A stretch of 64,000 bases of DNA, taken from NCBI GenBank assembly GCA_025611195.1, contig GCA_025611195.1_4718.1. The stretch is one strand, 5' to 3'. The number at the start of each line of letters is the position of its first letter. The first letter of the stretch is position 1. Shown piece after piece: positions 7,695-53,578 of this stretch. The DNA comes from a phage. A program made the translations under genes and the position numbers. The notes under the pieces were generated by a model. The model ran no database searches and was not told where the DNA came from. It saw nothing but the letters and a program-made list of their open reading frames with translations.

Positions 7695-7716
7695 TGTCAC
7701 CTAGGTAATGTAAGCG
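7695..7716 (-). promoter_or_regulatory. early-promoter-like motif (minus-strand reading CGCTTACATTACCTAGGTGACA), degenerate copy of the motif at 15865-15888 and 53555-53578
   Basis: shared core TAC/TATTACCTAGGTGA upstream of a minus-strand gene start and just downstream of a hairpin. Confidence 0.4.
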
Positions 7717-7755
7717 TCAAATTTTTTCTATTTATAACGATAAACGGCATAGAAA

Positions 7756-7785
7756 CCTCCCCCAACCCTTACGGGCTGAGGGAGG
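7756..7785 (-). terminator. palindromic hairpin element (CCTCCCCC-AACCC-TTAC-GGGCTGA-GGGAGG) downstream of the 740-aa gene
   Basis: inverted repeat; same AACCC...GGGAAGG-type architecture as the other copies. Confidence 0.5.
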
Positions 7786-7884
7786 CTGACTTATGTATCA
7801 CGGTGCCGGATGAATGTCCGGTGCAATGAAACCATCCGCAACGTTGTCGTCAAGAATATCATCCAACGAAGCAGCTACGGTAGT

Positions 7885-10107
7885 TCAGTTAGTCTGAACC
7901 GGCAGCTTGATGTTTTCAGTGTAGACCTTACGCAGGTTCACAACGTTAATCAGACCCAGCAGCGGGCAGTTGTTAACGAAGCGGCAGCGAGGCTGAACCA
8001 TGGTTTCTTTAGAAACCTGACCGTTACGGGTAACCTGAGCAACAGATACCAGTTCCGGTACATACAGGAACATACCGAAGGTCAGCGGATCCGGAGAACC
8101 CTGGATACCACGAGACAGGGTCACGAAGATCTTATCACGCAGCAGGACGTTCGGGTTATCTACAACCACGAAGTTGAAGCTTACACCAACGGTACGGAAA
8201 TCACCATCGGTCTGCAGGAACTGCGGGATGTAGTTGTCGGTTGCTACTACGCAACGCGGTTTCTCATCAGCGTTGGAAGACAGCAGCTGCAGAGCTGGCT
8301 GATAACCAGACTCGGAGTACATGCGATATGCCATCTCACGAATCACGTTCATGATCGCAGCGGACACTTCGGCACGACGTTCTGCAGTGGTGGTACCCTG
8401 AACAGATTTCGCCAGGTCCAGATTGATTTCTTCGAACCACGGACGGATCAGGTAACGACCGAAACCTTCGATCTGGATATCACCGAACTGACGGAAGCGA
8501 GAGGTCGCAACCGCTTTCAGTGCATCTTTGTAGCTGAACAGTTTCTCAACCATCAGGTTGTCGAAACGTGCGTTAGCAGCTTGGATCAGAACGTCCAGGT
8601 CAGCAGCGTTTTCTTCCCAATCCAGCGGACGAGGAATAGAGAACGGAGCCAGCAGGCCGATTGCGTAACGTTCTTGCTTCATGTTGAAGTCAAGGTGTTT
8701 ACCACGTTCACGACGGTTGCTGTTGTTACGGCGAATACGCAGTTCGTAACCAACCAGTTTGAAGCTCAGGTCGTCAGCCAGGTCTTTAAATTCTTGGCTC
8801 TTACGCGGCTGTTCGATGTTGTCCTGATCAACCAGGCGATACAGTTCAGCGTTAGCACCGTTAACACGCAGACCTGCTTTCTCTACGTTGGAAGAACCGT
8901 AAACTTCGATAGCCAGCTGAGCAGCAGATTTCGCATCGATGATGTCCTGCAGCGCTTCAGCTTTCGCGCCTTTAACGTCAACGGTGTTCTCATCAACGAA
9001 GATGGAGTGGGTGTCGAACGCCAGGGTCATTTTGCGGAAGTCGCCTTCCAGGGATTTCTGGAAACCGTTGGTAATCAGACCGGATACGTCGAACGGAACG
9101 TAAGAGGTCTTGCTGTGCTTGGCTGATTTGATTTCCACCAGGATTTTGGTCAGCGTGATCTGAGCATCCAGCGCGTCGGTGTTGTCGCTGTAACCGTTAG
9201 CCAGAATGCTATCGTCTTCAGCGATACCGATCATGTCGATCAGTTTATCAACAGCCAGGTAAGACGTTTTGTAAGTTACGCCTTTGATCTCGATGTCGCG
9301 CGGAGCAACGATAGTTTTGTCAACGAAGTACTGCGCGTTAGCATCGTCAGCACGATAGATCGGATGCAGATCGGTCACGTCGTTGGACAGAACGTCGTTG
9401 TACATGAACGCATCCAGCAGCGGACGACGTACCCAATCAGCCGGAGTACCGTCAGCGTTACGACGCAGGTGGTTGAACACCAGCGGACGACGGAAAGATA
9501 CATCATAACCGATCTGGTTCGGAGCCAGAACGATGGTGTTGTACAGTTCGTTACCCATGCGGCTCAGACGAGAAGCCTTCACGTTGAACACAACGGAGTA
9601 CGGCATCATGTCACGCAGTTCTTTCTGGTCGTAGGACAGCTGAACCAGTTCTTCAGATTCGCAACCGCAGGAATCAGCAGCCATCATGACGAAGTTAGAG
9701 CTGTCAACTTCACGGCCAGACGGAGTGGTGCTGATGTTCATGGAACGTGCTTGTTTAGCATATTCCACCGGGTTGCCATGAGCCAGCATGATCAGTGCTG
9801 CTGCACGAGCCTGCTGTGCGTTCATGGTGAACAGCTGTTCTTCAATACGCTGCTTCTCTTCCGGAGTGGTGGTTTCGAAGCCCAGCATGGACAGAACCGG
9901 TTCTTCTGCTTTACGGATGTCGCTGCTGAAGCTCTTAACATCCATATCGTTAACCAGTTTGTCCATGGATTTGAAATCAACCTTAGAAGCAGATTCCATA
10001 GACAGGAAGGTGTTCTCCAGACCTTTGTCTGCTGGTTTGCTACCATTAGCGGTCAGGAACTGGCGAGTGGCCGCGACCTGTTGGCTAAGAAGGGTTTTAT
10101 CATTCAT
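7885..10107 (-). CDS. abundant protein, candidate major capsid protein of a jumbo phage (740 aa); identity not verifiable from sequence alone
   Basis: strongly biased codon usage (cgt/ctg/gaa/ggt-rich) typical of very highly expressed genes; size fits phiKZ-type MCP; N-terminal LSMESA motif shared with paralog family; hairpin after stop. Confidence 0.7.
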   Translation of the reverse strand: MNDKTLLSQQVAATRQFLTANGSKPADKGLENTFLSMESASKVDFKSMDKLVNDMDVKSFSSDIRKAEEPVLSMLGFETTTPEEKQRIEEQLFTMNAQQARAAALIMLAHGNPVEYAKQARSMNISTTPSGREVDSSNFVMMAADSCGCESEELVQLSYDQKELRDMMPYSVVFNVKASRLSRMGNELYNTIVLAPNQIGYDVSFRRPLVFNHLRRNADGTPADWVRRPLLDAFMYNDVLSNDVTDLHPIYRADDANAQYFVDKTIVAPRDIEIKGVTYKTSYLAVDKLIDMIGIAEDDSILANGYSDNTDALDAQITLTKILVEIKSAKHSKTSYVPFDVSGLITNGFQKSLEGDFRKMTLAFDTHSIFVDENTVDVKGAKAEALQDIIDAKSAAQLAIEVYGSSNVEKAGLRVNGANAELYRLVDQDNIEQPRKSQEFKDLADDLSFKLVGYELRIRRNNSNRRERGKHLDFNMKQERYAIGLLAPFSIPRPLDWEENAADLDVLIQAANARFDNLMVEKLFSYKDALKAVATSRFRQFGDIQIEGFGRYLIRPWFEEINLDLAKSVQGTTTAERRAEVSAAIMNVIREMAYRMYSESGYQPALQLLSSNADEKPRCVVATDNYIPQFLQTDGDFRTVGVSFNFVVVDNPNVLLRDKIFVTLSRGIQGSPDPLTFGMFLYVPELVSVAQVTRNGQVSKETMVQPRCRFVNNCPLLGLINVVNLRKVYTENIKLPVQTN

Positions 10108-10256
10108 TGAAAGTATCCTTTACAGAATTAACTTATATAAGTCGGTCGATAGACCATAGCGTACACGCGTGCATGCGCCACTATAGTATCAGTAAACACT
10201 TACCGTTATTGAGGTTGTGATACAACACTAAAAATGCCGCATAACTTTTCCCTACG

Positions 10257-10877
10257 TCACAAACGACGCAGGCGATAATGGATGGAACGATTGGTGCAAT
10301 ATGAACGGAACAGCGGCAATTGCGCAACTTCCGCAAGACTCATATTAATTCGCAGATGTTCAATAACGGCGCTGTAGTTATCAGCAATACGATCGCTCAA
10401 TAACTCTTCTGCCAATAAAGGAAGACAATCGACAACAATCGCGATCACATCCTCATTAACATAACGCACCCGAACACTCAACGGACGTTTGTCTGGGCTG
10501 TAAGTTGGATCCGCCAAACGACGTTCAATATCACGCGGATAGCTCGTCAGTAAATGGTAATAACCATTGTCATAACGATTGATGTACTCACACAGCACAT
10601 CAACATTCTTCTCCGACGGCAAACCTGTTTCGTCATAGTGATACGCAAACATACCACCAAGTAGGTTGTTAAGATGTACCGCAGGGTTCGCTTGTTCGTG
10701 TTCTTTCGTGATGAAGAAAGGCACGTTTTGGGCTGCGAAATAAAAACCTACATCATTGGGCGATAGTATGCCGAAAAGACTTTTAGGATCCAACAGCACC
10801 TGTAAGTCATCACGCGCATTTCGAATAATCGCGTGTTCTACCCAATTCGGAACGACGAGATATCGGAGTTCCTTCAT
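10257..10877 (-). CDS. hypothetical protein (206 aa)
   Basis: ORF with SD-like AGAGGT upstream of ATG. Confidence 0.6.
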   Translation of the reverse strand: MKELRYLVVPNWVEHAIIRNARDDLQVLLDPKSLFGILSPNDVGFYFAAQNVPFFITKEHEQANPAVHLNNLLGGMFAYHYDETGLPSEKNVDVLCEYINRYDNGYYHLLTSYPRDIERRLADPTYSPDKRPLSVRVRYVNEDVIAIVVDCLPLLAEELLSDRIADNYSAVIEHLRINMSLAEVAQLPLFRSYCTNRSIHYRLRRL

Positions 10878-10916
10878 TATGATTACCTCTTTGCAAGTAT
10901 CGAAAGGATTGAGTCG

Positions 10917-12527
10917 ATGGACCCAAAACAGATAGCCATTAAGATTATTACGTTACTGTTTCGTAACGCACAATTGAACCATCCCGATCCCAGTACGATC
11001 GACCATGTTAAATCCGTCTTAGATAAAGTCGAACCCCCGAAAAACCATCTCGCTACGGACATAGATAGAGAGGTTTTCAACAACCTGATGAATACCATTC
11101 ATTGGATGCTGGAACAACCGTTATCGGAACCTTTCGACAAACAACAGTTGTTACAAAGGATACGTTTAGATTGCCTTGAGCAAAGCAATCTTTACGAGAT
11201 TCTTGCCGACGGACTGTACGATATCGAAGACGATGCTCATATCAGTAAGGTCTGTTCGCTTTATTACAACGAATTGCGTAACCTGGTTACCCGCCGTCGT
11301 GTTTTCGAAACCTTTAGAAACACGTACATGGATATCAGTAACGGGCGACTTGGGGATAAAGAATTTTTCGATGCGATGGCGAATTTGAAATTATCGCTTG
11401 ATAGTATCGAAATGGATACCGAAAATCCCGAAGAGATGTCGTGTATGGTTGATGGCTTTATTGCCGACAGCGAAGACGATATCGAGAAAGTCGAACGCAT
11501 GTTCGTCAAAGCGATGGAACGTAACAGTCCTGAAGGTGGGTTTGTAACCGGCTGGCAAGGTTTTAATAAAATGTTGGGGTCGGTCGGCGTTTTACGTCGC
11601 GGTACCTTAGGACTGATTGGTGCAATGCAGCACCGAAATAAATCGGGTGTGTTGTTAAAACTGTTCACGCATCTGGCATTGTACAATAAACCTCATTTCT
11701 TTTTTCCGGAGCGAGCAAAGAAAGCATTACTGATTCATTTGTCAACAGAAAACGAAGTAGAAGAAAACACGCTTCAGATATACAAGAACATGCGAGAACA
11801 GGAAACAGGCGAATATGTCGATATTCGTAAGATTGACCCTCGCGAGGCATCACGTTATGTGTTGAAGGTGTTCAACGATGCGGGTTTCTCTGTTTGTATG
11901 CGCCGTGTTGACGGGATGAGTTACAAACAACTCGCTAATCTCATCGACCATTTCGAACGCATGGGTTATGAGGTCATGGCGTTGTTCATTGACTATCTGA
12001 AAATGTTCTCATCGGAAGGGCTGGATAGAAATGGACCGACCGGCGCATGGCTACAAGAACTCTTCAACAAAGTCCGTAACCTCTGCAGTGTTAAACGTAT
12101 TTTAGGTATGACCGTACACCAGCTGTCATCCGACGCGAAGATGCGCGCACGTGATGGTAACGACGAAGAGTTTGTTGACCAGGTCGCAGGCTTAAGTTAC
12201 TGGGATGGTTGTAAAGGGATTGACCGTGAGATCGATCTTGAAGTGATTGTTGATATCGTTAAGGAACCGGGTAAACGTCAAAGCTGGCAAGTCTTTGCAT
12301 TAGGGAAGGACCGTCAACCGGATAACGGTTCAACAAAACCTGAGGATAAACATTTCACAATGCCATTCCAAACCATCGGGATGCTTCCTGATGATTACGG
12401 TAAGAAAGCAGTATACTGCCGTAAGGTTGGTGGACAACCGGTCTCCGAGGGAGGTAAAGGTCCGTGGAACAAATTCGATGAAAATGCAGCACCGAGTAAT
12501 GAATTACAATTTGATTTAGAATTTTAA
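10917..12527 (+). CDS. hypothetical protein (~536 aa); start moved to internal ATG with AAAGGA Shine-Dalgarno
   Basis: track ORF 10833-12527 overlaps divergent gene start; ATG at 10917 has SD at 10903-10910. Confidence 0.65.
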   Translation: MDPKQIAIKIITLLFRNAQLNHPDPSTIDHVKSVLDKVEPPKNHLATDIDREVFNNLMNTIHWMLEQPLSEPFDKQQLLQRIRLDCLEQSNLYEILADGLYDIEDDAHISKVCSLYYNELRNLVTRRRVFETFRNTYMDISNGRLGDKEFFDAMANLKLSLDSIEMDTENPEEMSCMVDGFIADSEDDIEKVERMFVKAMERNSPEGGFVTGWQGFNKMLGSVGVLRRGTLGLIGAMQHRNKSGVLLKLFTHLALYNKPHFFFPERAKKALLIHLSTENEVEENTLQIYKNMREQETGEYVDIRKIDPREASRYVLKVFNDAGFSVCMRRVDGMSYKQLANLIDHFERMGYEVMALFIDYLKMFSSEGLDRNGPTGAWLQELFNKVRNLCSVKRILGMTVHQLSSDAKMRARDGNDEEFVDQVAGLSYWDGCKGIDREIDLEVIVDIVKEPGKRQSWQVFALGKDRQPDNGSTKPEDKHFTMPFQTIGMLPDDYGKKAVYCRKVGGQPVSEGGKGPWNKFDENAAPSNELQFDLEF

Positions 12528-12553
12528 ACGCAAAAAAAAAAGATTGTACGGTT

Positions 12554-12585: not shown

Positions 12586-12600
12586 TTATGACCGCGGTGG

Positions 12601-12927: not shown

Positions 12928-12933
12928 GATAAC

Positions 12934-13978: not shown

Positions 13979-14049
13979 TTTACCTTTCTATGTTAGGTGG
14001 ATTGCGGATAGAAGAATCAATGCATAAACTAATTTAAGTTTGTTAAGGT

Positions 14050-14952
14050 TTACTTAGCCTTTGAGTTATGCGGACTAACATGCTGTTGTACTCGTTGGAT
14101 TGTATCGTAGTACGGGTTAGATTGGTTGAACATGTTGTTGTGTGGGGGATAGCCATATGGCGCATTTTGCCTTGTTGGTGAGAAACCTTGTTGAGAAGGA
14201 CGGTTTGAATTAACCGCGAGTACGTAGTAAACCAAATTTTGACGGTCGAATGTTCCTTCGTTTTTGAAAGTGTCGGCGTAGGCTTTTACCGCTGGAGTGA
14301 GCCTATCACCATCGGCTGTAATAATTGTACCGTCTGGGTAAACTTCCCGAACGACGCACCATGTTCCGATGAGAACATCTTTAGGTGCTGTATTACCATA
14401 TCCGGTTGTAACGGTAAGGTAAGTATCGAACCCTTCAGAACAACAAGGATGACGATAGATGGGTCCTGTCATTTCCGTTCTATCGGTATCGCTACATTGT
14501 TCTATTGAGAGCGATGATGTGTCGGTTTTGAAATTGTCAAATTCTTTCTTTAAGTCGATTACGGGTTCTTTCGTATAGTACTTCTTGATTGCTTTGACGT
14601 AAAGATCAGGAACGGTTGTCAGCAATCCGTTATACCTGATTCTCAGGTTTTCGAGTAATCCAAAGATGCTCGCGCATGCCTGTTCGCGAGGTTTTGTAAG
14701 ATAAGAGATCCCCTCAGGAACGCTGGGATCTTTGAGAAAGAAGATTGCGTTATTGTCGTTGTGCGATGCGTTGAAGAAAACGATTGATTCGATATATACG
14801 GAGCATAGGCTGTCATTGGCGTCGTCAGATAACACCCAGATGCACTCATCGGTCGTCTTGTTTAAAAGTTCTGTTTTGTCGACCAAACGTTGTTTCATTG
14901 CGAGGAAATGTGCCTGTTGTTCAGCAGTTAATTCACGATAAATAGTGGTCAT
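14050..14952 (-). CDS. hypothetical protein (~300 aa), paralog of 15038-15811
   Basis: start at ATG 14952 with AAGGAG SD; C-terminal block HPCCSEGFDTYLTVTTGYGNTAPKDVLIGTWCVVREVYPDGTIITADG matches HPECHTTYDRYLTITGGVAAPSPVDIGEWRMIREIYPDGRIVTFCG in the neighbour. Confidence 0.65.
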   Translation of the reverse strand: MTTIYRELTAEQQAHFLAMKQRLVDKTELLNKTTDECIWVLSDDANDSLCSVYIESIVFFNASHNDNNAIFFLKDPSVPEGISYLTKPREQACASIFGLLENLRIRYNGLLTTVPDLYVKAIKKYYTKEPVIDLKKEFDNFKTDTSSLSIEQCSDTDRTEMTGPIYRHPCCSEGFDTYLTVTTGYGNTAPKDVLIGTWCVVREVYPDGTIITADGDRLTPAVKAYADTFKNEGTFDRQNLVYYVLAVNSNRPSQQGFSPTRQNAPYGYPPHNNMFNQSNPYYDTIQRVQQHVSPHNSKAK

Positions 14953-15037
14953 GTTGGGCTCCTTGATTACGATAAGGATGATTGCGGTTTTGTGGGTTTG
15001 GTAGGGCCCTAAACAAAGGAACCCTACCAATATTAGG

Positions 15038-15811
15038 TTAATCAGGATCGGCGTAGAAATGGTGAGGATAGCCGGAGTACGATCCTGCGTTACCGGCTAT
15101 GGATTCTTTCTGGGAATCGACGACGAGCGCATAGAACTGTCGGGAATTTGTTAGCGTTGAGAAATAAGCGGAAAGGACTTTTTCATTCAATGCATCACAA
15201 GGTAGGCAGGTGCGACCGCAAAACGTCACGATACGGCCGTCAGGATAGATCTCACGAATCATTCTCCACTCACCGATATCCACTGGTGATGGCGCTGCTA
15301 CACCACCTGTTATCGTTAAGTAACGATCGTACGTGGTATGGCATTCAGGATGAATATAGATCGGCTTGTTCGTTTCGACAGGTTCCGAAGTATCTCGACG
15401 ACTAAGAAGCTCAACGACTTCAAGATAAATCGTTGGTAGATCGCGGAGAATACCGGTGCTACGACGTTTCTTTGTGATTCGCGGACGAATCTCGTTGAGA
15501 GCGTATTCGAGCTTACGTTCAGCTTCGTACGCATCGAGTTTTATCAAGCGACCCGGTTCATCGGAATGATCCTGAGTTACGTAAACGAAATACGTGTCGC
15601 CTTTTGCAGCGTGAAAGATTCGAGCGACCTTAAATGTTTCTACGGTACGATAACCAAGGCGCGATTGATTTTCCACAGGAGAAAATATCCAATGCCGTCC
15701 TTCGTCAGCCTCAACAATTTCGTTGAAACTATCTGTCTGTTCTGGGACCTGGTAGTCAGCCAGTAATGTGTCGAGAGCATCATCAGCCAGTTTGATGTAA
15801 ATATCTGTCAT
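15038..15811 (-). CDS. hypothetical protein (257 aa), paralog of 14050-14952
   Basis: shared C-terminal domain with adjacent gene; preceded by promoter-like motif. Confidence 0.65.
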   Translation of the reverse strand: MTDIYIKLADDALDTLLADYQVPEQTDSFNEIVEADEGRHWIFSPVENQSRLGYRTVETFKVARIFHAAKGDTYFVYVTQDHSDEPGRLIKLDAYEAERKLEYALNEIRPRITKKRRSTGILRDLPTIYLEVVELLSRRDTSEPVETNKPIYIHPECHTTYDRYLTITGGVAAPSPVDIGEWRMIREIYPDGRIVTFCGRTCLPCDALNEKVLSAYFSTLTNSRQFYALVVDSQKESIAGNAGSYSGYPHHFYADPD

Positions 15812-15864
15812 GTTTGTATCCTCGGTTATTAAGAGAAATTTACAGTGATAACAGTAAGCGTTGT

Positions 15865-15888
15865 TATCACCTAGGTAATATAGTCGCG
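15865..15888 (-). promoter_or_regulatory. conserved early-promoter-like motif (minus-strand reading CGCGACTATATTACCTAGGTGATA) followed by 5'-UTR inverted repeat AGTGATAACA...TGTTATCAC (15844-15870)
   Basis: near-identical to motif at 53555-53578; placed between a hairpin and the next gene start. Confidence 0.5.
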
Positions 15889-15924
15889 AAATAAACTGGA
15901 GTAATGCGCTTAAGACAGCATAAA

Positions 15925-15957
15925 CCCCTCTCCCAACCCGTCAGGGAAGGGAGAGGG
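15925..15957 (-). terminator. palindromic hairpin element CCCCTCTCCC-AACCC-GTCA-GGGAA-GGGAGAGGG
   Basis: inverted repeat immediately after stop of 15962-17329. Confidence 0.55.
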
Positions 15958-15961: not shown

Positions 15962-17329
15962 TTAAACGGTTGGACGAACGGTATTGTCTTTTTCTGGTGC
16001 GATCCATAACGTGACCGTACCATGGCATGTCCACTGTGGTTCACGTACAGAAGAACCCGCCATCGTTACAGCGCAATCGGTACGCATGATGACCCCATAT
16101 GCTTCGCAGAGGTTGTTATCCTGCATCCACACAACTTTAGCGGGCATACCGGGATACAACAGATCCATGTTTGCGTATTCCCACACCAACTGCATTGTTC
16201 TACCGCGTAATCCAGCAGTATTGCTTATTTCACGCCATCGGTTATCGGTTACGCGTCCCATCCCTTTCGCCACCTTCACGTTATCGCTACGCTCTTCAGT
16301 TACGTACTCGCTAACGTTTACGGTACGACTGATTATGGTATCGCCCCCCTTTGATAATGTCATCCCCTGACTCATCTGACTTGCCGAAACAAAACGCCCA
16401 CCCGCATTACCTAACAACGAAGCCGCGTTATTGACGTCGCTTACCGACGCCCCTCTCGTACATGCAATTTCCACGTATTTGTCGCGATTGATCCAGGTCT
16501 TGTCCATACCCGGAAACATATCGGCAGGATAGTTGTAAAAGATAGCTGTACGTCGACCGTCAGAGAAACGGGTTTCGTCGTATAAGGGGTAGATATACAG
16601 ATACGGGGATTGATAATAACAACCGACATCTGCTGAATAAATACCAACCTGGTTCTGGATTTTATCTACGAGATCCATCGCATTGGTACCGTGTGGAAGA
16701 ATAAGCAACTTGAATGGGTTGTCGTTATTCGGTGCAACGATATCCACACCCTGCATTTTGAATCCGGTGTCAGCTTCAACCGCAGAAAGTATCTTGCTGA
16801 ATTCAAGGCGCAACACATCCAGCACTTTCGATCCAGTATAGTTCTCACCGGTTTCTGATTGCATGAAGCTTTCAAGAACAGGATCGAACAGTTGAAATTG
16901 AAGATCGACCATTTGTTCGTAGTCTTTCTTCGAAGAATCGGTTGCGGTACGTTCGTCGGTAGCAGACATACGACTGTCTACGGTTGTTAAACAGACCGCC
17001 CGGTAGACATAAGCCTGTGCGGCATCGTCTACGGTTTGGCGTTGTCCGCGCATCAGGCTGTACGCCTGCACGATGATGCGCATTTTAAGTTGTTGTTGGT
17101 ACGGTAGAATGTATTTTCCGTAACTGCCTGGTGGAAACTTTACAGAGATATAAAGTTCATCCCCTGCGTTACGTTCATAGTCTCGATACGTGTGGACTTG
17201 AGTCACTAAAGGAACAGACACCGTCATTGACGGCGTGATTAATTCCGCGGTGACTTTATACGCAACAGCAACAGCTTCCTGCGCAAACGTACCGATATAC
17301 CGTCCTAACGGCGTCTGTTTGTAATCCAT
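15962..17329 (-). CDS. hypothetical protein (455 aa), probable structural-module gene
   Basis: long ORF in tightly packed co-directional block 15962-21178. Confidence 0.7.
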   Translation of the reverse strand: MDYKQTPLGRYIGTFAQEAVAVAYKVTAELITPSMTVSVPLVTQVHTYRDYERNAGDELYISVKFPPGSYGKYILPYQQQLKMRIIVQAYSLMRGQRQTVDDAAQAYVYRAVCLTTVDSRMSATDERTATDSSKKDYEQMVDLQFQLFDPVLESFMQSETGENYTGSKVLDVLRLEFSKILSAVEADTGFKMQGVDIVAPNNDNPFKLLILPHGTNAMDLVDKIQNQVGIYSADVGCYYQSPYLYIYPLYDETRFSDGRRTAIFYNYPADMFPGMDKTWINRDKYVEIACTRGASVSDVNNAASLLGNAGGRFVSASQMSQGMTLSKGGDTIISRTVNVSEYVTEERSDNVKVAKGMGRVTDNRWREISNTAGLRGRTMQLVWEYANMDLLYPGMPAKVVWMQDNNLCEAYGVIMRTDCAVTMAGSSVREPQWTCHGTVTLWIAPEKDNTVRPTV

Positions 17330-21178: not shown

Positions 21179-21228
21179 CGCAGATTCCTGTTTGAAAGAT
21201 AAGATATCACATGATGGTCGACAGCATA

Positions 21229-21251
21229 AAGCCCACCCCGAAGGGCGGGCT
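21229..21251 (-). terminator. hairpin AGCCCACCCC-GAA-GGGCGGGCT downstream of the 1127-aa gene
   Basis: GC-rich inverted repeat in intergenic gap. Confidence 0.45.
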
Positions 21252-21266
21252 GTTTATGCGCACGGA

Positions 21267-29821: not shown

Positions 29822-29869
29822 GTGTTGTCTCCAGTAATGATTCAAAAGATAAACCTGGACGGCATATAA

Positions 29870-29901
29870 CCCTCTCCCAACCCGTAAGGGAAGGGAGAGG
29901 G
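29870..29901 (-). terminator. palindromic hairpin element CCCTCTCCC-AACCC-GTAA-GGGAA-GGGAGAGGG
   Basis: inverted repeat after stop of highly expressed 441-aa gene. Confidence 0.55.
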
Positions 29902-29923
29902 AATATATCAGTCTATTAACTGA

Positions 29924-45852: not shown

Positions 45853-47604
45853 ATGAGCGAACAAGAACGAAAACCTAAGAAGAAACTGCTCGGTATTCAA
45901 TGTCGACACATCAGCTATAACGAAGCGAACGATGGTAGTAAGAACGACCTCATGATCGCAAAAGAGATCATGTTCTTCGATGATAATACGCAAGCGACGA
46001 ACCTTCGCTTCTTCGAGAATTACAAACGTCCGTTTTGGGTGACGGTAGAGAGTAAACGCAAGAACAAATATAAAAAGGAAAGCGAGAAGCTCTCGCACGT
46101 GCGACGCTACGATGTCCGTCAAAGTGAGCTGGTTGAAAAGATCAGCTCGGTGCTTTATAAAAGACGTGCTGACGATAACACCCGTTTACAGCAGCTTGCA
46201 CGGAGTCCCTACCTCTATGGCACGGACGTTAGCGCCAGCTGTTATTTAAAAACCCAATACAATACAAAATGGCCGGAATACGTCGATAAATTACCCGCGT
46301 CTATCGCATGTTTCGATATCGAAACCGATGTTGTCCACGGACACGGTAAGATCGTCTGTATGTCTATTACAATGGGATACAATGCGATCCTTTGCTATAC
46401 CAAGGACTTCGTTGGTCATATTCCGAATGCGATTGAGAAAACCCATGAGAAGATTCGATATTACCTGGCCGAACGTCTGAACACCAAAGAAGATCCTCAT
46501 GCGTTCGAAAAATATCAGTACGATGTTCGAATCGTAGAAAGCCCAGCACAAGCGGTCATCCAATGCATGCAGAAGGTTCACGAATGGCAGCCGGATTATC
46601 TCCTTGGCTGGAATATCGCGTTCGATATTCCGCGTATGCTCCAGGCACTGAACGAGGAAGGGTATCGTCCCGAGGATGTTTTCTCCGATCCTCGTGTACC
46701 ACCTAAGTATCGTATTGCTCGCTGGGTACCACCGAAGACCGACAAGGTATCTGCTTCAGGTCGTAAAACCAACCTTACCCTTGAGCAAACCTGGCCGATG
46801 TTTTATACGATGGCCACGTATCAGGTTATGGATGCGATGTGTGGTTATAAGTTCGTTCGTTTAGGAAGACCGGATGAGGGGAGATACTCACTCGATGCGG
46901 TGTTAGAGCGAAATAAATGTCATACGAAATTAAAAGCAATTCCTGGTACAGAGGGGTTCACGGAGCTTGCGTGGCACGAAGAGATGCAAACGAACCATCA
47001 AATCGACTACGGCGTATATAACCTTTGGGATAACCAGGGTATCGAGGCGTTGGACCAGAAAACAAAAGACTATTCGATGACCATCCCTATTCGTTTGGCA
47101 GCATCGGATTTGAAAGATTTCAGTTCTAACCCTAAACGTATCTGCGATAAACTTTTCTTCGTTTATCTTAACCGTGGGGAAGTCATGGGATGCACCGCCG
47201 ACGACATGACCCAGGAAGAAGATAAGTGGGTTATCTCACGAACCGGACATATCGTCACATTGCCATGCGATCTCATGGCGGACAACGGCATCCATCTCTT
47301 CTGGGATATGCCGAACCTGAGAAGTTATATCCGTCTATTCGTTGCAGACCTCGACATTAGCAGTTCATACCCGAATGGGCAGATCCTGTTGAATCTATCC
47401 AGAGCATGTGTTTTTCGTGAGCTCTCACGCATTGAAGGCGTCTCTGACTATCAGTTCAGGAAGTTAGGTATCAACTTTATTACCGGAGGTAAAACGAACG
47501 CTGTAGACTTCTGTAGAATCGTTTATAAAGCACCATCGATGTTCGAACTCTTAGAACATTTCGATGCAACGCGTCCAAAAGGGGAAGCGCGGACCATCGA
47601 ATGA
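45853..47604 (+). CDS. family B DNA polymerase, N-terminal fragment (3'-5' exonuclease domain plus polymerase motif A); polymerase appears split
   Basis: Exo I CFDIETDV, Exo II LLGWNIAFDIPRM, Exo III YNLWD, motif A ADLDISSSYPNG; no motif B/C before the stop. Confidence 0.7.
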   Translation: MSEQERKPKKKLLGIQCRHISYNEANDGSKNDLMIAKEIMFFDDNTQATNLRFFENYKRPFWVTVESKRKNKYKKESEKLSHVRRYDVRQSELVEKISSVLYKRRADDNTRLQQLARSPYLYGTDVSASCYLKTQYNTKWPEYVDKLPASIACFDIETDVVHGHGKIVCMSITMGYNAILCYTKDFVGHIPNAIEKTHEKIRYYLAERLNTKEDPHAFEKYQYDVRIVESPAQAVIQCMQKVHEWQPDYLLGWNIAFDIPRMLQALNEEGYRPEDVFSDPRVPPKYRIARWVPPKTDKVSASGRKTNLTLEQTWPMFYTMATYQVMDAMCGYKFVRLGRPDEGRYSLDAVLERNKCHTKLKAIPGTEGFTELAWHEEMQTNHQIDYGVYNLWDNQGIEALDQKTKDYSMTIPIRLAASDLKDFSSNPKRICDKLFFVYLNRGEVMGCTADDMTQEEDKWVISRTGHIVTLPCDLMADNGIHLFWDMPNLRSYIRLFVADLDISSSYPNGQILLNLSRACVFRELSRIEGVSDYQFRKLGINFITGGKTNAVDFCRIVYKAPSMFELLEHFDATRPKGEARTIE

Positions 47605-47684: not shown

Positions 47685-47701
47685 GGAAGTTTTATGTGTT
47701 T

Positions 47702-48151
47702 TTAATTATTGTTGATGGGGTTATCGTCCGGCTTATATTCGATGCCGTAGGCGACGTAACGGTCTGTCGTATGGACGACAAGCGAGATGGGGAAATCATA
47801 ATGCGTGGTTTTGTCTCGGACGAGCTGAGTAAAGAGATCCATATAACGTATTAAGTCTTCACTGGTGTAATCAGAAGGGAAGAAGACGTCGATGGTTATT
47901 GAATCTTCATAGAGGCGTATAACCAACTTATCCAGAAGGTCGGCATATTGGTTAGCCGGGGTGACGTCCAGCTCACAGATATCACGATCTCCTTCGTCTC
48001 GTGATACCCACATCATGGTATCCTGTAATGAGGTTTCAAGGATCTCGAAAATGCATTTTGCTGTAAGTTTTAGTTTATTTGTTACGTCATGGTTAGGTGA
48101 ATAATGGTCACGGATGTTTTTCACTGCGTCTTTGATAGAGAAAGTCATCAT
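47702..48151 (-). CDS. small paralog array member P1 (149 aa)
   Basis: AAGGAG SD; C-terminal YDFPISLVV...EYKPDDN motif shared with P6-P9. Confidence 0.65.
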   Translation of the reverse strand: MMTFSIKDAVKNIRDHYSPNHDVTNKLKLTAKCIFEILETSLQDTMMWVSRDEGDRDICELDVTPANQYADLLDKLVIRLYEDSITIDVFFPSDYTSEDLIRYMDLFTQLVRDKTTHYDFPISLVVHTTDRYVAYGIEYKPDDNPINNN

Positions 48152-48161
48152 TGATGCTCCT

Positions 48162-48671
48162 TCAAATGAAATTAATACGTGCGGCTGTCGAAACGAGTTC
48201 GCTTGTAAAGCAATGCTTACCGTCGGTGTTTACCGTGTATGTAAGTTTACAAACCTTAGCGGCAGGGTTAGCACCGATAACAAGGACGGTCGTCATATCG
48301 AACAGTTCCACACGTTGAAGAAATGCCGTATCGGCTACCTTCTGTAAACCGGTTGCTTCAAAATCGATGTGGTCGTTAAGAGGCACCAATTGGATTTCAA
48401 TGCGTTCTTTGAAAAGTTTAAACGTTACTGAAAACCGATGAGGTTCGGTATTAAGCCATAAAGGTCCACGTTGGAAGTGCTGATATGCTTCATTCGCGGT
48501 GTTCTCGAAAACCCAGCAGTCGTGGACAAGAGAAGCCTCTTGTAACGATGATTCCAGGTAGTCAAATACCTTGTTTATCGTTTTCTCAAGCATAGGCGCT
48601 AGTGAACCAGGGTATCCGGCAAATGCTGCTTCGGCAATCGATTTTATTGATACGATGTTGTTCTGACTCAT
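48162..48671 (-). CDS. small paralog array member P2 (~169 aa)
   Basis: start moved to ATG 48671 with AAGGAA SD; same size class and context. Confidence 0.55.
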   Translation of the reverse strand: MSQNNIVSIKSIAEAAFAGYPGSLAPMLEKTINKVFDYLESSLQEASLVHDCWVFENTANEAYQHFQRGPLWLNTEPHRFSVTFKLFKERIEIQLVPLNDHIDFEATGLQKVADTAFLQRVELFDMTTVLVIGANPAAKVCKLTYTVNTDGKHCFTSELVSTAARINFI

Positions 48672-48675
48672 TTCT

Positions 48676-49128
48676 TTATTCCTTGTTGGCTTCTTCAATG
48701 TGCTTGGTGTCGTAAGACAAATGCTGAATTAATTTTCTAGGTTCGATGAAAATACGACATGTGATAAACACATCAGGGTTGTATTGTTCCACGCAACGTC
48801 CGAAGGCTCGTTTTGCGGACTGACGCATCAATGTTAATTCCTGATCGTTCATCTCATCATCAAATTCGATGTGTATCGTGATTTTATCGGGAAATAAATA
48901 GATAGAGTAGTCGCTACCGATATCACCGTCGTCAAAACGATAATCGTTGTGGTAATGGTGGAGTTTACCTTCGTGTATCGTCTGGTACCACCCAACGATA
49001 CTATCAAGACCCATACCCAGGCGTCCGAATGCTTGAGTAATAACATCCTCAACGACGGATGCGGGCGTGGGACCATTGAATAGACGATCTAAGCGCTTTT
49101 TCATTGATTTGTCGGTTTTCATGTTCAT
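48676..49128 (-). CDS. small paralog array member P3 (~150 aa)
   Basis: start moved to ATG 49128 with AGGAAA SD; AFGRCVEQYNPDVFITCRIFIEP resembles family C-terminal motif. Confidence 0.55.
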   Translation of the reverse strand: MNMKTDKSMKKRLDRLFNGPTPASVVEDVITQAFGRLGMGLDSIVGWYQTIHEGKLHHYHNDYRFDDGDIGSDYSIYLFPDKITIHIEFDDEMNDQELTLMRQSAKRAFGRCVEQYNPDVFITCRIFIEPRKLIQHLSYDTKHIEEANKE

Positions 49129-49158
49129 TGTTTCTTTTCCTGTGTAGTCGGTATACAA

Positions 49159-49190
49159 CCCTTCCCCGGCCTGATGGCTAGGGAAGGGGC
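49159..49190 (-). terminator. hairpin CCCTTCCCC-loop-GGGAAGGGG inside the small-paralog array
   Basis: inverted repeat between P4 and P3. Confidence 0.45.
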
Positions 49191-49202
49191 TATGCTACGT
49201 TG

Positions 49203-49601
49203 TTATGCTTCGCAATCAGCTGAAGACGTCGCGCCTTTCTTACCAGCGATACGCCAAATCCGACACGCTGGATAATGGTTAACCTCTAGAGAGCAAGGAA
49301 TGTTATATTTCTCTTCCAGCGCATAAAGACATTTCGTTAGCTGCTCCAGCGCGTTCTCGTCGTGTCGTAACGCGTGGTGGCCTAATCGATGTTGGTCGTT
49401 CTTTATATACGCCTCGAAGAGAACATGTTGGCGATGTACGCTGACGTTTACAGCCTCGAGTATAGCTTGGTCGAGCATACGACTAAAGCACATCAACGAG
49501 TCAGATACGTTTTCTCGCTTAACCAGATCGATCATGGCGGGAATATACGAATGGTCGATGTTATCGATGACCGCTTTAGCGACGGAATCAGCAACGTTCA
49601 T
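49203..49601 (-). CDS. small paralog array member P4 (~132 aa)
   Basis: start at ATG 49601; N-terminus MNVADSVAKAVIDNIDH and C-terminus LEEKYNIPCSLEVNHYPA near-identical to P5. Confidence 0.65.
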   Translation of the reverse strand: MNVADSVAKAVIDNIDHSYIPAMIDLVKRENVSDSLMCFSRMLDQAILEAVNVSVHRQHVLFEAYIKNDQHRLGHHALRHDENALEQLTKCLYALEEKYNIPCSLEVNHYPACRIWRIAGKKGATSSADCEA

Positions 49602-49637
49602 CTTTTTAATCCCTAGTTTGTTATTGATCACGTATAT

Positions 49638-50033
49638 TTACTCTTTGACGTCAGTTGTCGTTTCGACATGCTTCTCACTACTGACGTACCAGAGCAGGTA
49701 CGCTGGGAAAAGATTGACCTCTAAGCTAAATGGGATATTGTATTTCTCTTCCATTTTACAGAGATGTTCTTTAATTAAATTTCTCGCGTCTCTGTCACCA
49801 CGAACAGAGTGCCAGTCTAGTTCTTTGTTCTCCTTTACCAGGACCTCTACGATGATACGTTGCTCGTGAACCTCGGTTTTCACAGTGAAAAGTAAATCGC
49901 TGCTATCAAAACGGGTAAAACGAATGTATGAACCAGGTGTTTTTTCTTGTTTAATAATATCGATCATGGTAGAAATGCGCGGATGATCGATGTTGTCGTT
50001 AACAGCTTTAACGATGGATTCTACAATGCTCAT
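49638..50033 (-). CDS. small paralog array member P5 (131 aa)
   Basis: MSIVESIVKAVNDNIDH...MEEKYNIPFSLEVNLFPA; tandem duplicate of P4. Confidence 0.65.
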   Translation of the reverse strand: MSIVESIVKAVNDNIDHPRISTMIDIIKQEKTPGSYIRFTRFDSSDLLFTVKTEVHEQRIIVEVLVKENKELDWHSVRGDRDARNLIKEHLCKMEEKYNIPFSLEVNLFPAYLLWYVSSEKHVETTTDVKE

Positions 50034-50065
50034 TTTTTATCCTTAATGTTATCGATTTGGAAATA

Positions 50066-50833
50066 TTACTTATTTTTGCTTTCTTTATAGACAGTTGTTA
50101 CCCACGATGGGAAAGCCGGATGGAAACAGAGCGTGAACGTAACTGTCGTATCGTATTTAAACGCGCAGTTCACTAACCGGGTATCGAACGTTTTCCTTAG
50201 ACCATCATCATCGTTATCGATGACAGCCATATCTCTTAATATCCCAAGCACGTTAACGCCGTCGAGTGTCTGGGTTACGACAAGTCGTCGTAATGGCCCG
50301 CATGTATAGTCACGTACAAATCCTTTCTTCGGGTCCGATACCCTGTTTAACGCATCGTGATTTTTGATGAATTCATCGGCGATACAATAGGTTTGTTCCC
50401 TTGCTTTATCGGGATCGTATTCTGCTAATAGTTCCTTCGTGTCGAACGTTATCATGTTATTATCATTCGATTCAGAAGGGAAACATAAAACTAAACGAAC
50501 AGGGTATTCGTATTGATCTGTTCTTGTTTCGAAAGCATTAGCTAGACACGGCTTGTATGCCTTTGCGTCGACATTGTCCAAACATGGATGCAATAATGCA
50601 TGAATAACGGCACCATCGTCAGTTAAACCGAATTCCAGAAATTGTACTTTATCAGTATCCGCTACGGTTTTCTGAAGATACGCTTTACCGTTTACGATAT
50701 CGGTATCCCACATATCGTCGTTTAACGATTCTTCAAACTTATCGAATATATGGTTTACGAGATTGACGAGTTCATCAATACGGCACTGTTGGTTGAATTC
50801 GATTAATCGCTGAACTTTATCTTTGATAGACAT
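50066..50833 (-). CDS. small paralog array member P6 (255 aa, possibly a two-domain fusion)
   Basis: contains AFETRTDQYEYPVRLVLCFPSE motif mid-protein and second related half. Confidence 0.6.
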   Translation of the reverse strand: MSIKDKVQRLIEFNQQCRIDELVNLVNHIFDKFEESLNDDMWDTDIVNGKAYLQKTVADTDKVQFLEFGLTDDGAVIHALLHPCLDNVDAKAYKPCLANAFETRTDQYEYPVRLVLCFPSESNDNNMITFDTKELLAEYDPDKAREQTYCIADEFIKNHDALNRVSDPKKGFVRDYTCGPLRRLVVTQTLDGVNVLGILRDMAVIDNDDDGLRKTFDTRLVNCAFKYDTTVTFTLCFHPAFPSWVTTVYKESKNK

Positions 50834-50835
50834 GA

Positions 50836-51294
50836 TTACCCCTTAGTTTCTTCTTCGTCTGGAGAGTACTCCATTGTGTAGAATTCATAACCATCGGAAA
50901 ACTTGAGTGTTAATGTAATAGGGAAATCGCACGGCATAGCTGATTTCGTAAACGCGTTATTAGCAACATCAGCCAACCGACGTATAGCATCAGTCCCGCT
51001 GACGCTGAACGGTAGTTGTATGTTGATAAGGATGCGGTGCTTGTAAACATGGAAAACAACGGTACTGTCAAGATAAACGCTATGGAACGGTATTGTTGGG
51101 ATGCGTTCCACGATGGTAAAATACGTCCCGTCATTATCGCTATGTCCCATCGACCAAATATCGGATTTGCGTAGATTTTGTTTGAGGGATTCGATACTTC
51201 GAGTGACGGTATCAACAACAGGCGTGACGTAAGTGTCTTTATGCGAGTCGAAAAGTTCGTTGACGTTAGATTCGAATGAATACATTGTTGCCAT
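50836..51294 (-). CDS. small paralog array member P7 (152 aa)
   Basis: C-terminus AFTKSAMPCDFPITLTLKFSDGYEFYTMEYSPDEE; start overlaps P8 stop (TAATG). Confidence 0.65.
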   Translation of the reverse strand: MATMYSFESNVNELFDSHKDTYVTPVVDTVTRSIESLKQNLRKSDIWSMGHSDNDGTYFTIVERIPTIPFHSVYLDSTVVFHVYKHRILINIQLPFSVSGTDAIRRLADVANNAFTKSAMPCDFPITLTLKFSDGYEFYTMEYSPDEEETKG

Positions 51295-51773
51295 TATTCT
51301 ACCTCTTTCTTCATCTTCATCGGAACAGAGAGTGCTGTTATCTCTGTTCCATTATCCGGTTCATACTCCAATGTAACGAGATTGCAGCCATCCGATAATT
51401 CATAATCGATCGCTAGGGGGAACGAGACACCGTGCGACTTTATGCATTTACCAAATGTCTCGTTGGCTGTATACATTAGAAGTTGCTTTGCGGCAAGCCC
51501 GTTTACGCTGAAAGGTAATCGTGCTGTCGCAGCGATACGATTATTGTAAACTCTGATATCGGTGATATCTACAATCGTAGCATTGCCGTGTTGTGTCGTT
51601 GGAACGGATAGGCTGTAGAAGTAAGGTTCGGAGTCGGAATCGGGCTCGTTAAATAATTCCCAGCACCCGTCCTCCTGCAATCTTACTTCGAGTATTTCAA
51701 AGCTTTTAATTATCGATTCTACCAGCTGCTCACCGTAAGAATCCCATGTCGTCATTTTTAACACCTTCGACAC
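51294..51773 (-). CDS. small paralog array member P8 (159 aa)
   Basis: C-terminus TFGKCIKSHGVSFPLAIDYELSDGCNLVTLEYEPDNG. Confidence 0.65.
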   Translation of the reverse strand: MSKVLKMTTWDSYGEQLVESIIKSFEILEVRLQEDGCWELFNEPDSDSEPYFYSLSVPTTQHGNATIVDITDIRVYNNRIAATARLPFSVNGLAAKQLLMYTANETFGKCIKSHGVSFPLAIDYELSDGCNLVTLEYEPDNGTEITALSVPMKMKKEVE

Positions 51774-51825
51774 CTTTTAACCGATGCGTGCCCCACCTAA
51801 CAAGGGACACGATATCGTTGATTAA

Positions 51826-52326
51826 TTACTCTTCTGTGTTTTCATTGTCAGGATCGTAATGGAATTCGAACAGCCCTGAACCGTCATGTCCGTTGATTGT
51901 TAGTATAACGGGCATATCGAATCCTCGGACGCGCGAATGAAAACACTGTGCTAATTTTAGTTTGGCGTATGCCGCTATTTCATTGACGGCAATACACGAC
52001 TCACCTGTTATACTCAGTATAACGTCGATACTAACAACGTTGTCGTGCAACGCAAAACGCCAGCGATCGATACGATTATTATCTTTAGCAGCTGTCTCGT
52101 TTACGAGATAGACTTTATCGTCAACTGACAAAGCAGGGCTCCAGCAACGTTCGTTTATTAAATTCGCCTGGAGTTTTAGTATCGTCTGATCAATAATATC
52201 CCAACACGCAACCAGTGTGGTGTCGGGCACTGAACAGAGAAGGGCGAGCACTTTATCCTTTATTTTAAGTGCTTCCACAGAGCGTCCGCAAATACCATGC
52301 ATTTCAACCTTCTTATTCATATTCAC
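51826..52326 (-). CDS. small paralog array member P9 (166 aa)
   Basis: C-terminus LAQCFHSRVRGFDMPVILTINGHDGSGLFEFHYDPDNE. Confidence 0.65.
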   Translation of the reverse strand: MNMNKKVEMHGICGRSVEALKIKDKVLALLCSVPDTTLVACWDIIDQTILKLQANLINERCWSPALSVDDKVYLVNETAAKDNNRIDRWRFALHDNVVSIDVILSITGESCIAVNEIAAYAKLKLAQCFHSRVRGFDMPVILTINGHDGSGLFEFHYDPDNENTEE

Positions 52327-52363
52327 CTCTTTCTTAATCTAAATGTTAGTTGGGGTGGGATGC

Positions 52364-52966
52364 TTACATGCTTTCTAGCATATTGACGATCATGGAACCC
52401 ATACCGAAACTCGGTCTCTCGCCAATGTACTCAGCAAGCTGACGATGAACGTCTTTTGGATTCCCTTCTTCACCGTCGGCGTCGATGTAAACCGAAAAAG
52501 AAAATGAATCGCAATCCACGCTGATAACCAGACGACGCTCATTGCGTTCCTTGAGTGTGTCGACAATAGCTGCTTTCAGTACTGCGATCGCGTTCATCGC
52601 GTGCAAGATATCTCCATCGGGTTTCGGCAGATCGATCTTTTCTTTCAGGTCGATATTGATGTTGGTTACAATTGGATTGAGGTCGACCTTGACATAATCG
52701 TTAGGGTACATGCGAATAATCGCACGATCGATATCTGAACCGTAAAAGTCAACACGCGGCTTTAACACTTCTTTGTTTGGATCCATGTTTTCATCCATAC
52801 CCGCCTGTAGAAAGCGTTCTACGTTATCCAGTTCACGATAGATTGACGCTTCGATTTCTTTCAGATAGTTGGCTGCGGTTTCATGTTCTTTACGCAGCTC
52901 GTCTTTAAGGAGCTGTACGGTGGTTTCACTGGAACGAATGCTGTTTGCGAACTGGGTAATTGACAT
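52364..52966 (-). CDS. small array gene P10 (~200 aa)
   Basis: start moved to ATG 52966 (AAGGAA SD) because the longer track ORF runs through the terminator at 53014-53043. Confidence 0.55.
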   Translation of the reverse strand: MSITQFANSIRSSETTVQLLKDELRKEHETAANYLKEIEASIYRELDNVERFLQAGMDENMDPNKEVLKPRVDFYGSDIDRAIIRMYPNDYVKVDLNPIVTNINIDLKEKIDLPKPDGDILHAMNAIAVLKAAIVDTLKERNERRLVISVDCDSFSFSVYIDADGEEGNPKDVHRQLAEYIGERPSFGMGSMIVNMLESM

Positions 52967-53013
52967 ATCGAATTCCTTAAATTCTCTTGAGTTCAATTGA
53001 TGATGAAAAGCTG

Positions 53014-53043
53014 TTAAAAAAATGGTGGGGTTCTCCCCCACCA
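53014..53043 (-). terminator. canonical intrinsic terminator: stem TGGTGGGG/CCCCACCA with U7 tract on minus-strand transcript
   Basis: inverted repeat 53023-53043 plus A7 on plus strand 53016-53022 immediately 3' (minus sense) of hairpin. Confidence 0.6.
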
Positions 53044-53066
53044 AAACGTCAGACACACGCAGAAAA

Positions 53067-53489
53067 TCAATTCAGTGATGCATACAACGCATAACGACTG
53101 TAGATTTCAACCGCTGGTCCATTATGCGTTAACAGACCATCTCGGTTGTAGTATTGGAAAAATGAATAACGTTTGTCGAAGTGATAAACGAAAGCAATGT
53201 CTTTGCCAAGACCTGTGATGTGCGGTCTGTTTTTATCTAGCAATGCTTTGACTTTTAACAGTGTTGCCGCACGCGCTTTAACATTAGGGATTAATCCATC
53301 ACAGTCGATATAAATCGTGTAACCTGTTTCTGATGCTGCGACAGTTGTATTGCGATTGACGCGAAAGATTTTTGTTTTGTATGTATCATCTTCAAGGATT
53401 GGGTTTTGTTTTTCGTATTTTCGTTTACGCAGAAATTCTACAACGGTAATATAGTTAGCGGTAATATGTCCGGTTATAGCTTGTAACAT
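53067..53489 (-). CDS. first gene of small array, P11 (140 aa)
   Basis: AAGAGGA SD; immediately downstream of promoter-like motif 53555-53578. Confidence 0.6.
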   Translation of the reverse strand: MLQAITGHITANYITVVEFLRKRKYEKQNPILEDDTYKTKIFRVNRNTTVAASETGYTIYIDCDGLIPNVKARAATLLKVKALLDKNRPHITGLGKDIAFVYHFDKRYSFFQYYNRDGLLTHNGPAVEIYSRYALYASLN

Positions 53490-53554
53490 CTTGACATCCT
53501 CTTATATTGGATTGATTACAGTTATCTTAAATAGGTGATAAGATATCTTGCTCT

Positions 53555-53578
53555 TATCACCTTAGTAATATAGTCGTG
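53555..53578 (-). promoter_or_regulatory. conserved early-promoter-like motif (minus-strand reading CACGACTATATTACTAAGGTGATA) followed by 5'-UTR inverted repeat AGGTGATAAG...CTTATCACCT (53533-53562)
   Basis: near-identical to 15865-15888; sits between hairpin 53618-53660 and start of P11. Confidence 0.5.

Follow-up and report, generated by a model that had tools for sequence, protein, structure and literature searches.

The early promoters of phiKZ are reportedly those of its virion RNA polymerase (RNAP), as described by Ceyssens in 2014. Development of phiKZ-type phages is independent of the host RNAP (PMC10914365, PMC7598289), and every jumbo phage that encodes an RNAP carries a predictable early motif for its virion RNAP (vRNAP), AT-rich, about 10 nt long and centred at -10 (PMC7598289). 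For phiKZ, 28-32 AT-rich early promoters have been published (PMC8244752, PMC10914365). A T/A-rich region upstream of about -19, together with -20 and -30 regions, has also been described for the early promoters of phiKZ and 201phi2-1. In phage AR9, the early promoter reads TATTAT-(6N)-G+1, and phiKZ has its transcription start site (TSS) 6 nt downstream from the element (PMC5312081). Here we examine three intergenic sites in a 64,000-nt stretch of phage DNA (GenBank assembly GCA_025611195.1, contig GCA_025611195.1_4718.1; the whole stretch is called the window below). They share an AT-rich, promoter-like motif, which is overlapped at two of them by an inverted repeat, and judging from sequence comparison they are probably early promoters, homologous to those of phiKZ, in a chimallivirus akin to Goslar.

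The original prediction, made from the bare sequence, had guessed a phiKZ-like phage, and the guess was right. The whole window is collinear with positions 35.5-97.1 kb of the Goslar genome at 94-95% identity and with few replacements (blastn map); the exception is a region of paralogs at 47.7-51.8 kb of the window, which contains stretches that diverge further or find no match (blastn). For a 4-kb piece around the first site, Escherichia phage vB_EcoM_Goslar was the sole match (95% identity). By this relatedness the window phage is phiKZ-like and Goslar-like and belongs to the family Chimalliviridae. Goslar is a nucleus-forming phiKZ-like jumbo phage whose vRNAP consists of five subunits, gp78, gp196, gp205, gp207 and gp210, gp78 being among the five detected in virions (bioRxiv 10.64898/2026.04.21.720040). 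It is now a main model for the phage nucleus and for the early-infection vesicle. The gp78 ortholog is present in the window at 54945..56246 (minus strand), as seen from synteny with and identity to Goslar 88077..89378, so that a subunit of a phage-encoded multisubunit virion RNAP is found on the same DNA as the three sites. Presumably, the enzyme containing this ortholog would read them.

The 41-nt element and its copies in Goslar

The sites were expected in front of minus-strand genes, and all three do precede such genes, which start at 15811, 53489 and 7553. Read on the minus strand, site 1 is CGACTATATTACCTAGGTGATA (15865-15886), site 2 is CGACTATATTACTAAGGTGATA (53555-53576) and site 3 is TACATTACCTAGGTGA (7697-7712). 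The near-identity noticed between sites 1 and 2 holds: both match the 22-mer consensus exactly, and when up to three mismatches are allowed this 22-mer occurs twice in the window and not once in 100 shuffles. The 12-mer TTACYWAGGTGA was found three times at one mismatch or less, against 0.7 expected. By itself, the 8-mer core TATATTAC does not significantly exceed chance in the window (3 copies vs 1.6 expected), and the long motif was therefore used instead.

A genome-wide search had been proposed as a check. We ran it on Goslar, whose genome was assembled from five annotated stretches, with an 18-mer first and a 41-nt matrix second. With the 18-mer, the minus strand yielded 11 copies and the plus strand a single match of the kind expected by chance. 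The matrix retrieved 12 sites at 32-55 bits, the next best match scoring 14.7. All 12 lie on the minus strand, which is the main coding strand, and before minus-strand genes, including the nuclear-shell gene chmA; 11 fall between annotated coding sequences and the twelfth within the 5' end of the 62-aa gp047. Their alignment yields a consensus of about 41 nt: a TTAAy box, an A/T-rich stretch with an A-run, and TTTCACGrCTAyATTAC-YTnnnT-GA. The motif first described is thus real, and its length was underestimated at 22 nt. No published promoter motif for Goslar was found in the literature, and a full-text search for the literal TATATTAC, alone or with vRNAP, returned nothing relevant.

To score the window we also used an independent matrix, built from eight Goslar sites only, none of which is orthologous to a window site. 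Sites 1, 2 and 3 obtained 39.4, 34.7 and 32.5 bits, the next best match 4.1 bits, and the maximum in 10 shuffled windows was 10.4 bits. With this matrix no plus-strand or intragenic match in the window exceeded about 4 bits; an equal frequency of copies inside genes or in antisense orientation had been named beforehand as an observation that would speak against a promoter.

Promoter 1 (15866..15906, minus strand; 49.4 bits with the first 41-nt matrix) has its core TATATTAC at 15875-15882, and orthologs of it are present in Goslar and in two IMG/VR genomes. Promoter 2 (53556..53596, minus strand; 42.1 bits) carries the same core at 53565-53572. In promoter 3 (7696..7736, minus strand; 41.5 bits) the core is TACATTAC, at 7705-7712. 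This third site had been called degenerate. It is instead a full member of the family, since TAC-ATTAC is frequent as a variant (seen in 4 of the 11 Goslar sites that were detected first) and since its score is high with either matrix. The predicted +1, placed by the TSS spacing of AR9 and phiKZ, is the conserved G that forms the seventh base after the core, at 15868, 53558 and 7698 respectively.

Further observations concern the Goslar copies. Two weak matrix matches on its minus strand, at 151618-151658 (14.2 bits) and 187623-187663 (12.2 bits), precede gp165, an RNAP subunit gene, and gp225; these may be weak or diverged early promoters. For gp047 (NC_048170 49584-49772), both the early promoter and its hairpin are located downstream of the annotated start. 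Probably this start is mis-called and the true one is the ATG after GAGGATACAGTC, or else the ORF (open reading frame) is spurious.

Relation to phiKZ early promoters and terminators

The phiKZ genome contains 33 copies of TATATTAC on the leading (plus) strand and 9 on the minus strand. Some 25 copies stand before genes and conform to TTTAA-N4-TATATTAC-N5-TG, a number that agrees with the 28-32 published early promoters; the original prediction had named the core as that of phiKZ early promoters, and the phiKZ genome bears this out. The resemblance extends beyond the core. An A/T-rich element lies about 5 nt upstream of it (TTTAAA in phiKZ, AAATTT or ATTTTC here), and T-G follows at positions 6-7 after it in all three window sites, in 12 of 12 Goslar sites and in 20 of the 21 phiKZ sites that were folded. 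In both phages the copies keep to a single strand and precede genes.

The genomic places are also the same. The chmA promoters of phiKZ (gp054, GAAAAAAATTTGAGATTTATATTACTAAATTGAATC) and Goslar (gp246, GAAAAAAATTTCAGGGTTATATTACCTAGGTGAATG) align over about 35 nt, including AAAAAAATTT, with the conserved G located 66 nt before the ATG in both. The counterpart of site 3 by synteny is the early promoter at 120657 of phiKZ, which directly follows the capsid gene and leads to gp121, gp122 and gp123; the order capsid gene, promoter, gp123 homolog is common to the window and phiKZ. Differences exist as well: the core flank (TTTCACGrC) and the start region (YTAGGTGA) are GC-richer here than in phiKZ, a C is tolerated at core position 3, the elements are fewer (12 in the 237 kb of Goslar vs about 25-32 in the 280 kb of phiKZ), and roughly half of the Goslar-type promoters carry a hairpin spanning the start site, which is not significantly enriched in phiKZ. 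With AR9 (AAATATATATTAT-(6N)-G+1, PMC5312081) the sites share an AT-rich core ending in TATTAY, a six-base spacer, a G at the start (here a predicted one) and, presumably, a virion multisubunit RNAP as the enzyme that reads them. AR9 differs in its uracil-containing genome, in having no nucleus and in the upstream half of the promoter, and no start-site hairpin has been reported for it.

Expression data on Goslar point, indirectly, in the same direction. By RNA-seq, chmA, picA and chmC are transcribed in the early (EPI) vesicle, which contains the vRNAP, and the capsid gene is late; chmA is still transcribed in the EPI vesicles of a ChmA knockdown and the capsid gene is not (bioRxiv 10.1101/2023.09.20.558163). 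In the same paper, the legend of Extended Data Fig. 4 mentions a 'TSS sequence' that begins 91 nt upstream of the chmA ATG. This stretch includes the core and the predicted start, and the legend itself does not fix the +1. Taken together, the motif family, its restriction to one strand and to positions before genes, its homology to the phiKZ elements and the synteny shared with phiKZ argue for early promoters of the virion RNAP, both the polymerase and the timing being assigned by homology.

A long GC-rich hairpin, with TTTATGCTGT or a very similar sequence after it, precedes each of the three promoters at a distance of 25-30 nt. The one before promoter 1 (15915..15957, minus strand, -26.8 kcal/mol), CCCTCTCCC...GGGAGAGGG with the tail TTTATGCTGT, ends the upstream gene 15962..17329. 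That before promoter 2 (53607..53660, minus strand, -28.4 kcal/mol) has the tail TTTTATGCTGT and follows gene 53664..54065, and that before promoter 3 (7744..7785, minus strand, -30.0 kcal/mol) lies downstream of the major head protein gene 7885..10107. All three match the terminator motif of phiKZ, BCCYCCCC..GGGRRGGBYTTATKYYGT (PMC10914365), known from 201phi2-1 also (PMC11512511), including the TTATGCYGT tail, with the difference that the stems are longer here (30-40 nt). A generic scan for a hairpin plus T-run missed them within the scanned regions. In all, six terminators of this type (CCYCCC...GGGRGG hairpin plus (T)TTATGCYGT) were found on the minus strand of the window, the other three at about 21221-21265, 29859-29905 and 54110-54155. 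The tails contain TATG, and this is so for all three tails adjacent to promoters; TATG is the core of the phiKZ late promoter, with its G as +1 (PMC4666361).

These elements suggest the following scheme. The multisubunit vRNAP (Goslar gp78/196/205/207/210) would be injected together with the DNA and would recognise the TTAAy box near -40, the A/T-rich stretch, TTTCACG and, at about -14 to -7, the TAyATTAC core; initiation would follow at the conserved G, the seventh base past this core. The phiKZ-type terminator would stop transcription of the upstream gene, which is in part a late gene, and the promoter would then open a new early unit: a pair of orphan paralogs at site 1, a single terminated orphan at site 2 and an operon reaching to the gp123 homolog at site 3. 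Late transcription of the capsid gene fits the presence of a terminator and an early promoter between that gene and the unit of site 3, an arrangement that would explain how a late capsid gene can adjoin an early operon for a polymerase subunit. The scheme provides a testable early-promoter model for Goslar, as a chimallivirus of E. coli, and its relatives, with 12 candidate early starts in Goslar and three in the window, and it offers compact promoter and terminator parts for engineering such phages.

The start-site hairpin and competing explanations

Inverted repeats had been noticed at the two strong copies. Folding confirmed both, at -11.4 (site 1) and -16.1 kcal/mol (site 2), except that the basal pair of site 1 is G-U and not G-C. 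Hairpin 1 (15844..15871, minus strand, z -3.8) pairs GGTGATAACA (15871-15862) with TGTTATCACT (15853-15844), and hairpin 2 (53533..53562, minus strand, z -7.0) pairs AGGTGATAAGA (53562-53552) with TCTTATCACCT (53543-53533), in both cases across an 8-nt loop. They overlap the motif as described, but they span the predicted +1 and are not wholly contained in the 5' untranslated region where they had been placed. No such hairpin was found by folding at site 3 (z -0.7).

To estimate enrichment, the 32 nt following the core were folded and compared with shuffles of nucleotides 9-32. The 12 Goslar sites gave a mean z of -2.2 (Fisher p 1.3e-7), with strong hairpins at five of them (chmA, gp200, gp105, gp075 and gp047). 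Covariation was examined in seven site-1 and site-2 sequences, which include the orthologs from two Goslar-like IMG/VR genomes. The only non-standard pair in their nine-pair consensus stem is the A-C that closes the loop. Variation takes the form of CG/GC at one pair, of GC/GU/AU at a second and of UA/UG at a third, and two of the nine pairs show compensatory changes. At the gp200 promoter the same fold is made from different sequences, CTTCATGA-TGACTG-TCATGAAG in Goslar vs TTCATGATGC-CAT-GCATCATGAA in a relative. Whereas the promoters themselves were to be expected, this covarying hairpin across the start site is the only feature that goes beyond expectation.

Several known roles of hairpins could be set aside. 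An intrinsic terminator is rejected, as neither a U tract nor a TTATG tail follows (the tails are GTAAATTTC and TATTTAAGA); a terminator scan made no call at the hairpins either. Rfam covariance models gave nothing at gathering threshold in the whole window. The N4 vRNAP is a single-subunit enzyme whose promoters contain a short DNA stem with a 3-nt loop, located upstream of +1 and needed for recognition. N4 promoters (PMC4496689) are similar to the present sites in that they serve an injected polymerase early and contain an inverted repeat. Here, in contrast, the stem lies at -4 to +24, the loops measure 8-13 nt, the G-U covariation is of RNA type, the RNAP is multisubunit, and the hairpin is missing from site 3 and from about half of the Goslar sites; a hairpin promoter of N4 type was rejected on stem position, loop size and these absences.

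Stabilising stem-loops at the 5' end are known from bacterial and phage mRNAs, for example from the ompA leader. An RNA begun at the predicted +1 would carry a flush 7-bp stem-loop at its 5' end at sites 1 and 2 (GAUAACA/UGUUAUC and GAUAAGA/UCUUAUC). Most likely, the hairpin would act as such a 5'-end stabiliser, shielding the early mRNAs in the host cytoplasm from 5'-end-dependent decay. As in the ompA type, the start of the stem is no more than a few bases away from the predicted 5' end; unlike there, part of the conserved stem lies upstream of the predicted start. The question bears on the survival, or the exit, of early mRNAs made in the vesicle.

Several points weigh against this account. 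Counted from the predicted +1, the stems start 2-4 nt upstream, and as much as 6 nt upstream at other Goslar-type promoters, which leaves the role of the hairpin unsettled; compensatory changes maintain these additional pairs. At Goslar gp200 and at the IMG/VR locus L010, the 5' arm is almost wholly upstream of the G; an RNA begun at this G would lack the hairpin, and part of the data is thus left unaccounted for by the stabiliser reading. Site 3 and about half of the Goslar sites have no hairpin; promoter function therefore does not depend on it. In phiKZ it is not significantly enriched (21 sites, mean z -0.4, p 0.08), by which we rejected it as a general chimallivirus feature. As to the promoters, RNA-seq of Goslar detected 175 of 249 genes at 5 min post-infection, so that 12 promoters would not make up the whole early programme, unless long operons or other promoter types contribute.

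There is consequently some chance, which we put well below even, that the hairpin acts elsewhere than at the 5' end of early mRNAs, the promoter assignment being unchanged. Such an action is in line with the conservation of the pairs at -1 and -2 in 7/7 sequences, with GC, GU and AU variants, with the position of the gp200 and L010 arms, and with stems that start at positions 1-6 after TAC at most hairpin-bearing sites; against it, TATTAC at -12..-7 with G as +1 matches both AR9 and bacterial -10 spacing. In one version, the vRNAP of the Goslar type would initiate 3-6 nt upstream of the point used by its AR9 and phiKZ counterparts, and the whole stem would then be transcribed. Alternatively, the stem may form in RNAs begun upstream, through read-through of the terminator or from the TATG present in all three terminator tails (the phiKZ late core, PMC4666361). 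Last, a DNA hairpin or palindrome may help or block initiation. The G-U wobbles occur on the sense strand only, as expected of RNA and not of a two-strand cruciform, and with loops of 8-13 nt a cruciform would extrude poorly. A fixed protein operator was rejected, given arm spacings of 9-23 nt and inner stems that differ in sequence. The wobble pairs, the variable spacing and the differing inner sequences together favour an RNA structure over an operator or a cruciform.

A more specific proposal, which we think rather unlikely, makes the hairpin, with its conserved pairs at -4..-1, a functional element specific to the Goslar lineage: the vRNAP of this lineage would start several bases upstream of the canonical G, or the hairpin would act on non-template DNA and so aid initiation on the injected genome in the vesicle, or it would mark early mRNAs for stability or for export from the vesicle. 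An observation in favour of the main reading comes from a separate jumbo-phage clade in IMG/VR (~220 kb; contigs of about 85-223 kb, GC 0.48-0.54), which carries the same promoter as AAAAAATTTCAGATCTATATTAC-(5N)-T-GAATAG at loci L050, L053, L055, L059, L060, L062, L067, L069 and L074. Most of these loci have a covarying hairpin about 6 nt after the conserved G (GGATACA/TGTATCC, GACTAGA/TCTGGTC, GAATACAA/TTGTATTC), which shows that early transcripts bear 5'-proximal stems more than once in this family.

The remaining alternatives concern the early promoters themselves. That the motif is a middle or late promoter of the non-virion RNAP, or a site for a phage transcription factor, seems improbable. 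In the 201phi2-1 study promoter class and gene function did not always correspond as expected, which leaves room for such a case; the middle (AAAATTACC-like, near -24) and late (TATG) motifs of phiKZ are, however, short, weakly conserved and unlike the 41-nt element, whose alignment is with the early element of phiKZ; moreover chmA, behind one of the copies, is expressed with no nucleus present, from the EPI vesicle.

A host sigma-70 promoter read by E. coli RNAP, with TATATT as -10 box, is very improbable, and we rejected it. TATATT is one mismatch from TATAAT, and site 2 offers a 9/12 match (TTAACG-16-TATATT); yet sites 1, 2 and 3 contain 0, 1 and 0 sigma-70 matches at 16-18 nt spacing, the one at site 2 is at chance level, and the conserved TTTCACG, ATTAC and TGA are not sigma-70 determinants. 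Finally, a functionless remnant of duplicated intergenic DNA is hardly credible: sites 1 and 2 share sequence outside the motif as well (CCAGTTTATTTC..., GTGATAAC / GTGATAAG) and are probably duplicates, but the 12 Goslar sites have unrelated flanks, lie on one strand and all precede genes, the element is conserved as far as phiKZ, and the motif was kept while the cargo downstream was swapped.

Genes served and exchange of cargo

Behind promoter 1, the minus strand carries two paralogous ORFs (14050..15811), 15038..15811 and 14050..15030, related to each other at 37% identity (BLASTP 6e-16). They belong to a window-specific insertion of 1.78 kb (14027-15806), which replaces 89 bp of Goslar (blastn map). 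Its junction falls directly after the start codon: promoter, hairpin and ribosome-binding site were kept and the cargo was exchanged. This marks early-promoter cassettes as places of accessory-gene swapping. In two IMG/VR relatives, additional DNA was seen between the upstream gene and the promoter 1 ortholog.

Promoter 2 serves a 140-aa orphan gene (53067..53489, minus strand), the ortholog of Goslar gp075; neither this gene nor those behind promoter 1 had a Pfam or PHROG match. The unit is closed on the same strand by a canonical intrinsic terminator read from the sequence, GGTGGGG-GAGAA-CCCCACC plus T7 (53016-53042), at a spot where the Goslar annotation also places one. The ORF after it probably starts at the ATG at 52965 and not at the mechanically listed GTG at 53056. 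The promoter-2 gene had been taken for the first of an array of small paralogs. This was not borne out: it has its own terminator, and BLASTP to the array paralogs gave no similarity at E<1e-3. Going by these comparisons, it precedes the array and is not a detectable member of it. Within the array, also on the minus strand, one group comprises 50836..51294, 51294..51773, 51826..52326 and 47702..48151, and a second comprises 49203..49631 and 49638..50033. The region 47702-52326 aligns patchily to Goslar, hence the array content differs between the two phages.

Behind promoter 3 (4275..7553, minus strand) lie an orphan gene, 6111..7553, for which BLASTP found no similarity to PHIKZ122, and the gp123 homolog, 4275..6071, which matches PHIKZ123 (BLASTP 1e-56) and PHROG 2943 'polymerase' (7e-120). 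We take phiKZ gp123 to be a subunit of the non-virion RNAP, the label of the record being 'polymerase'.

A last difference from Goslar lies outside the promoter units. At Goslar 81186-82966, a 1.78-kb insertion with the NUMOD1/HNH endonuclease gene gp069 sits inside the DNA polymerase gene; no group I intron and no Rfam match were found in it. It has no counterpart at window 47348-47368, and the window ORF 45853..47604 (plus strand) is continuous, with 583 aa.

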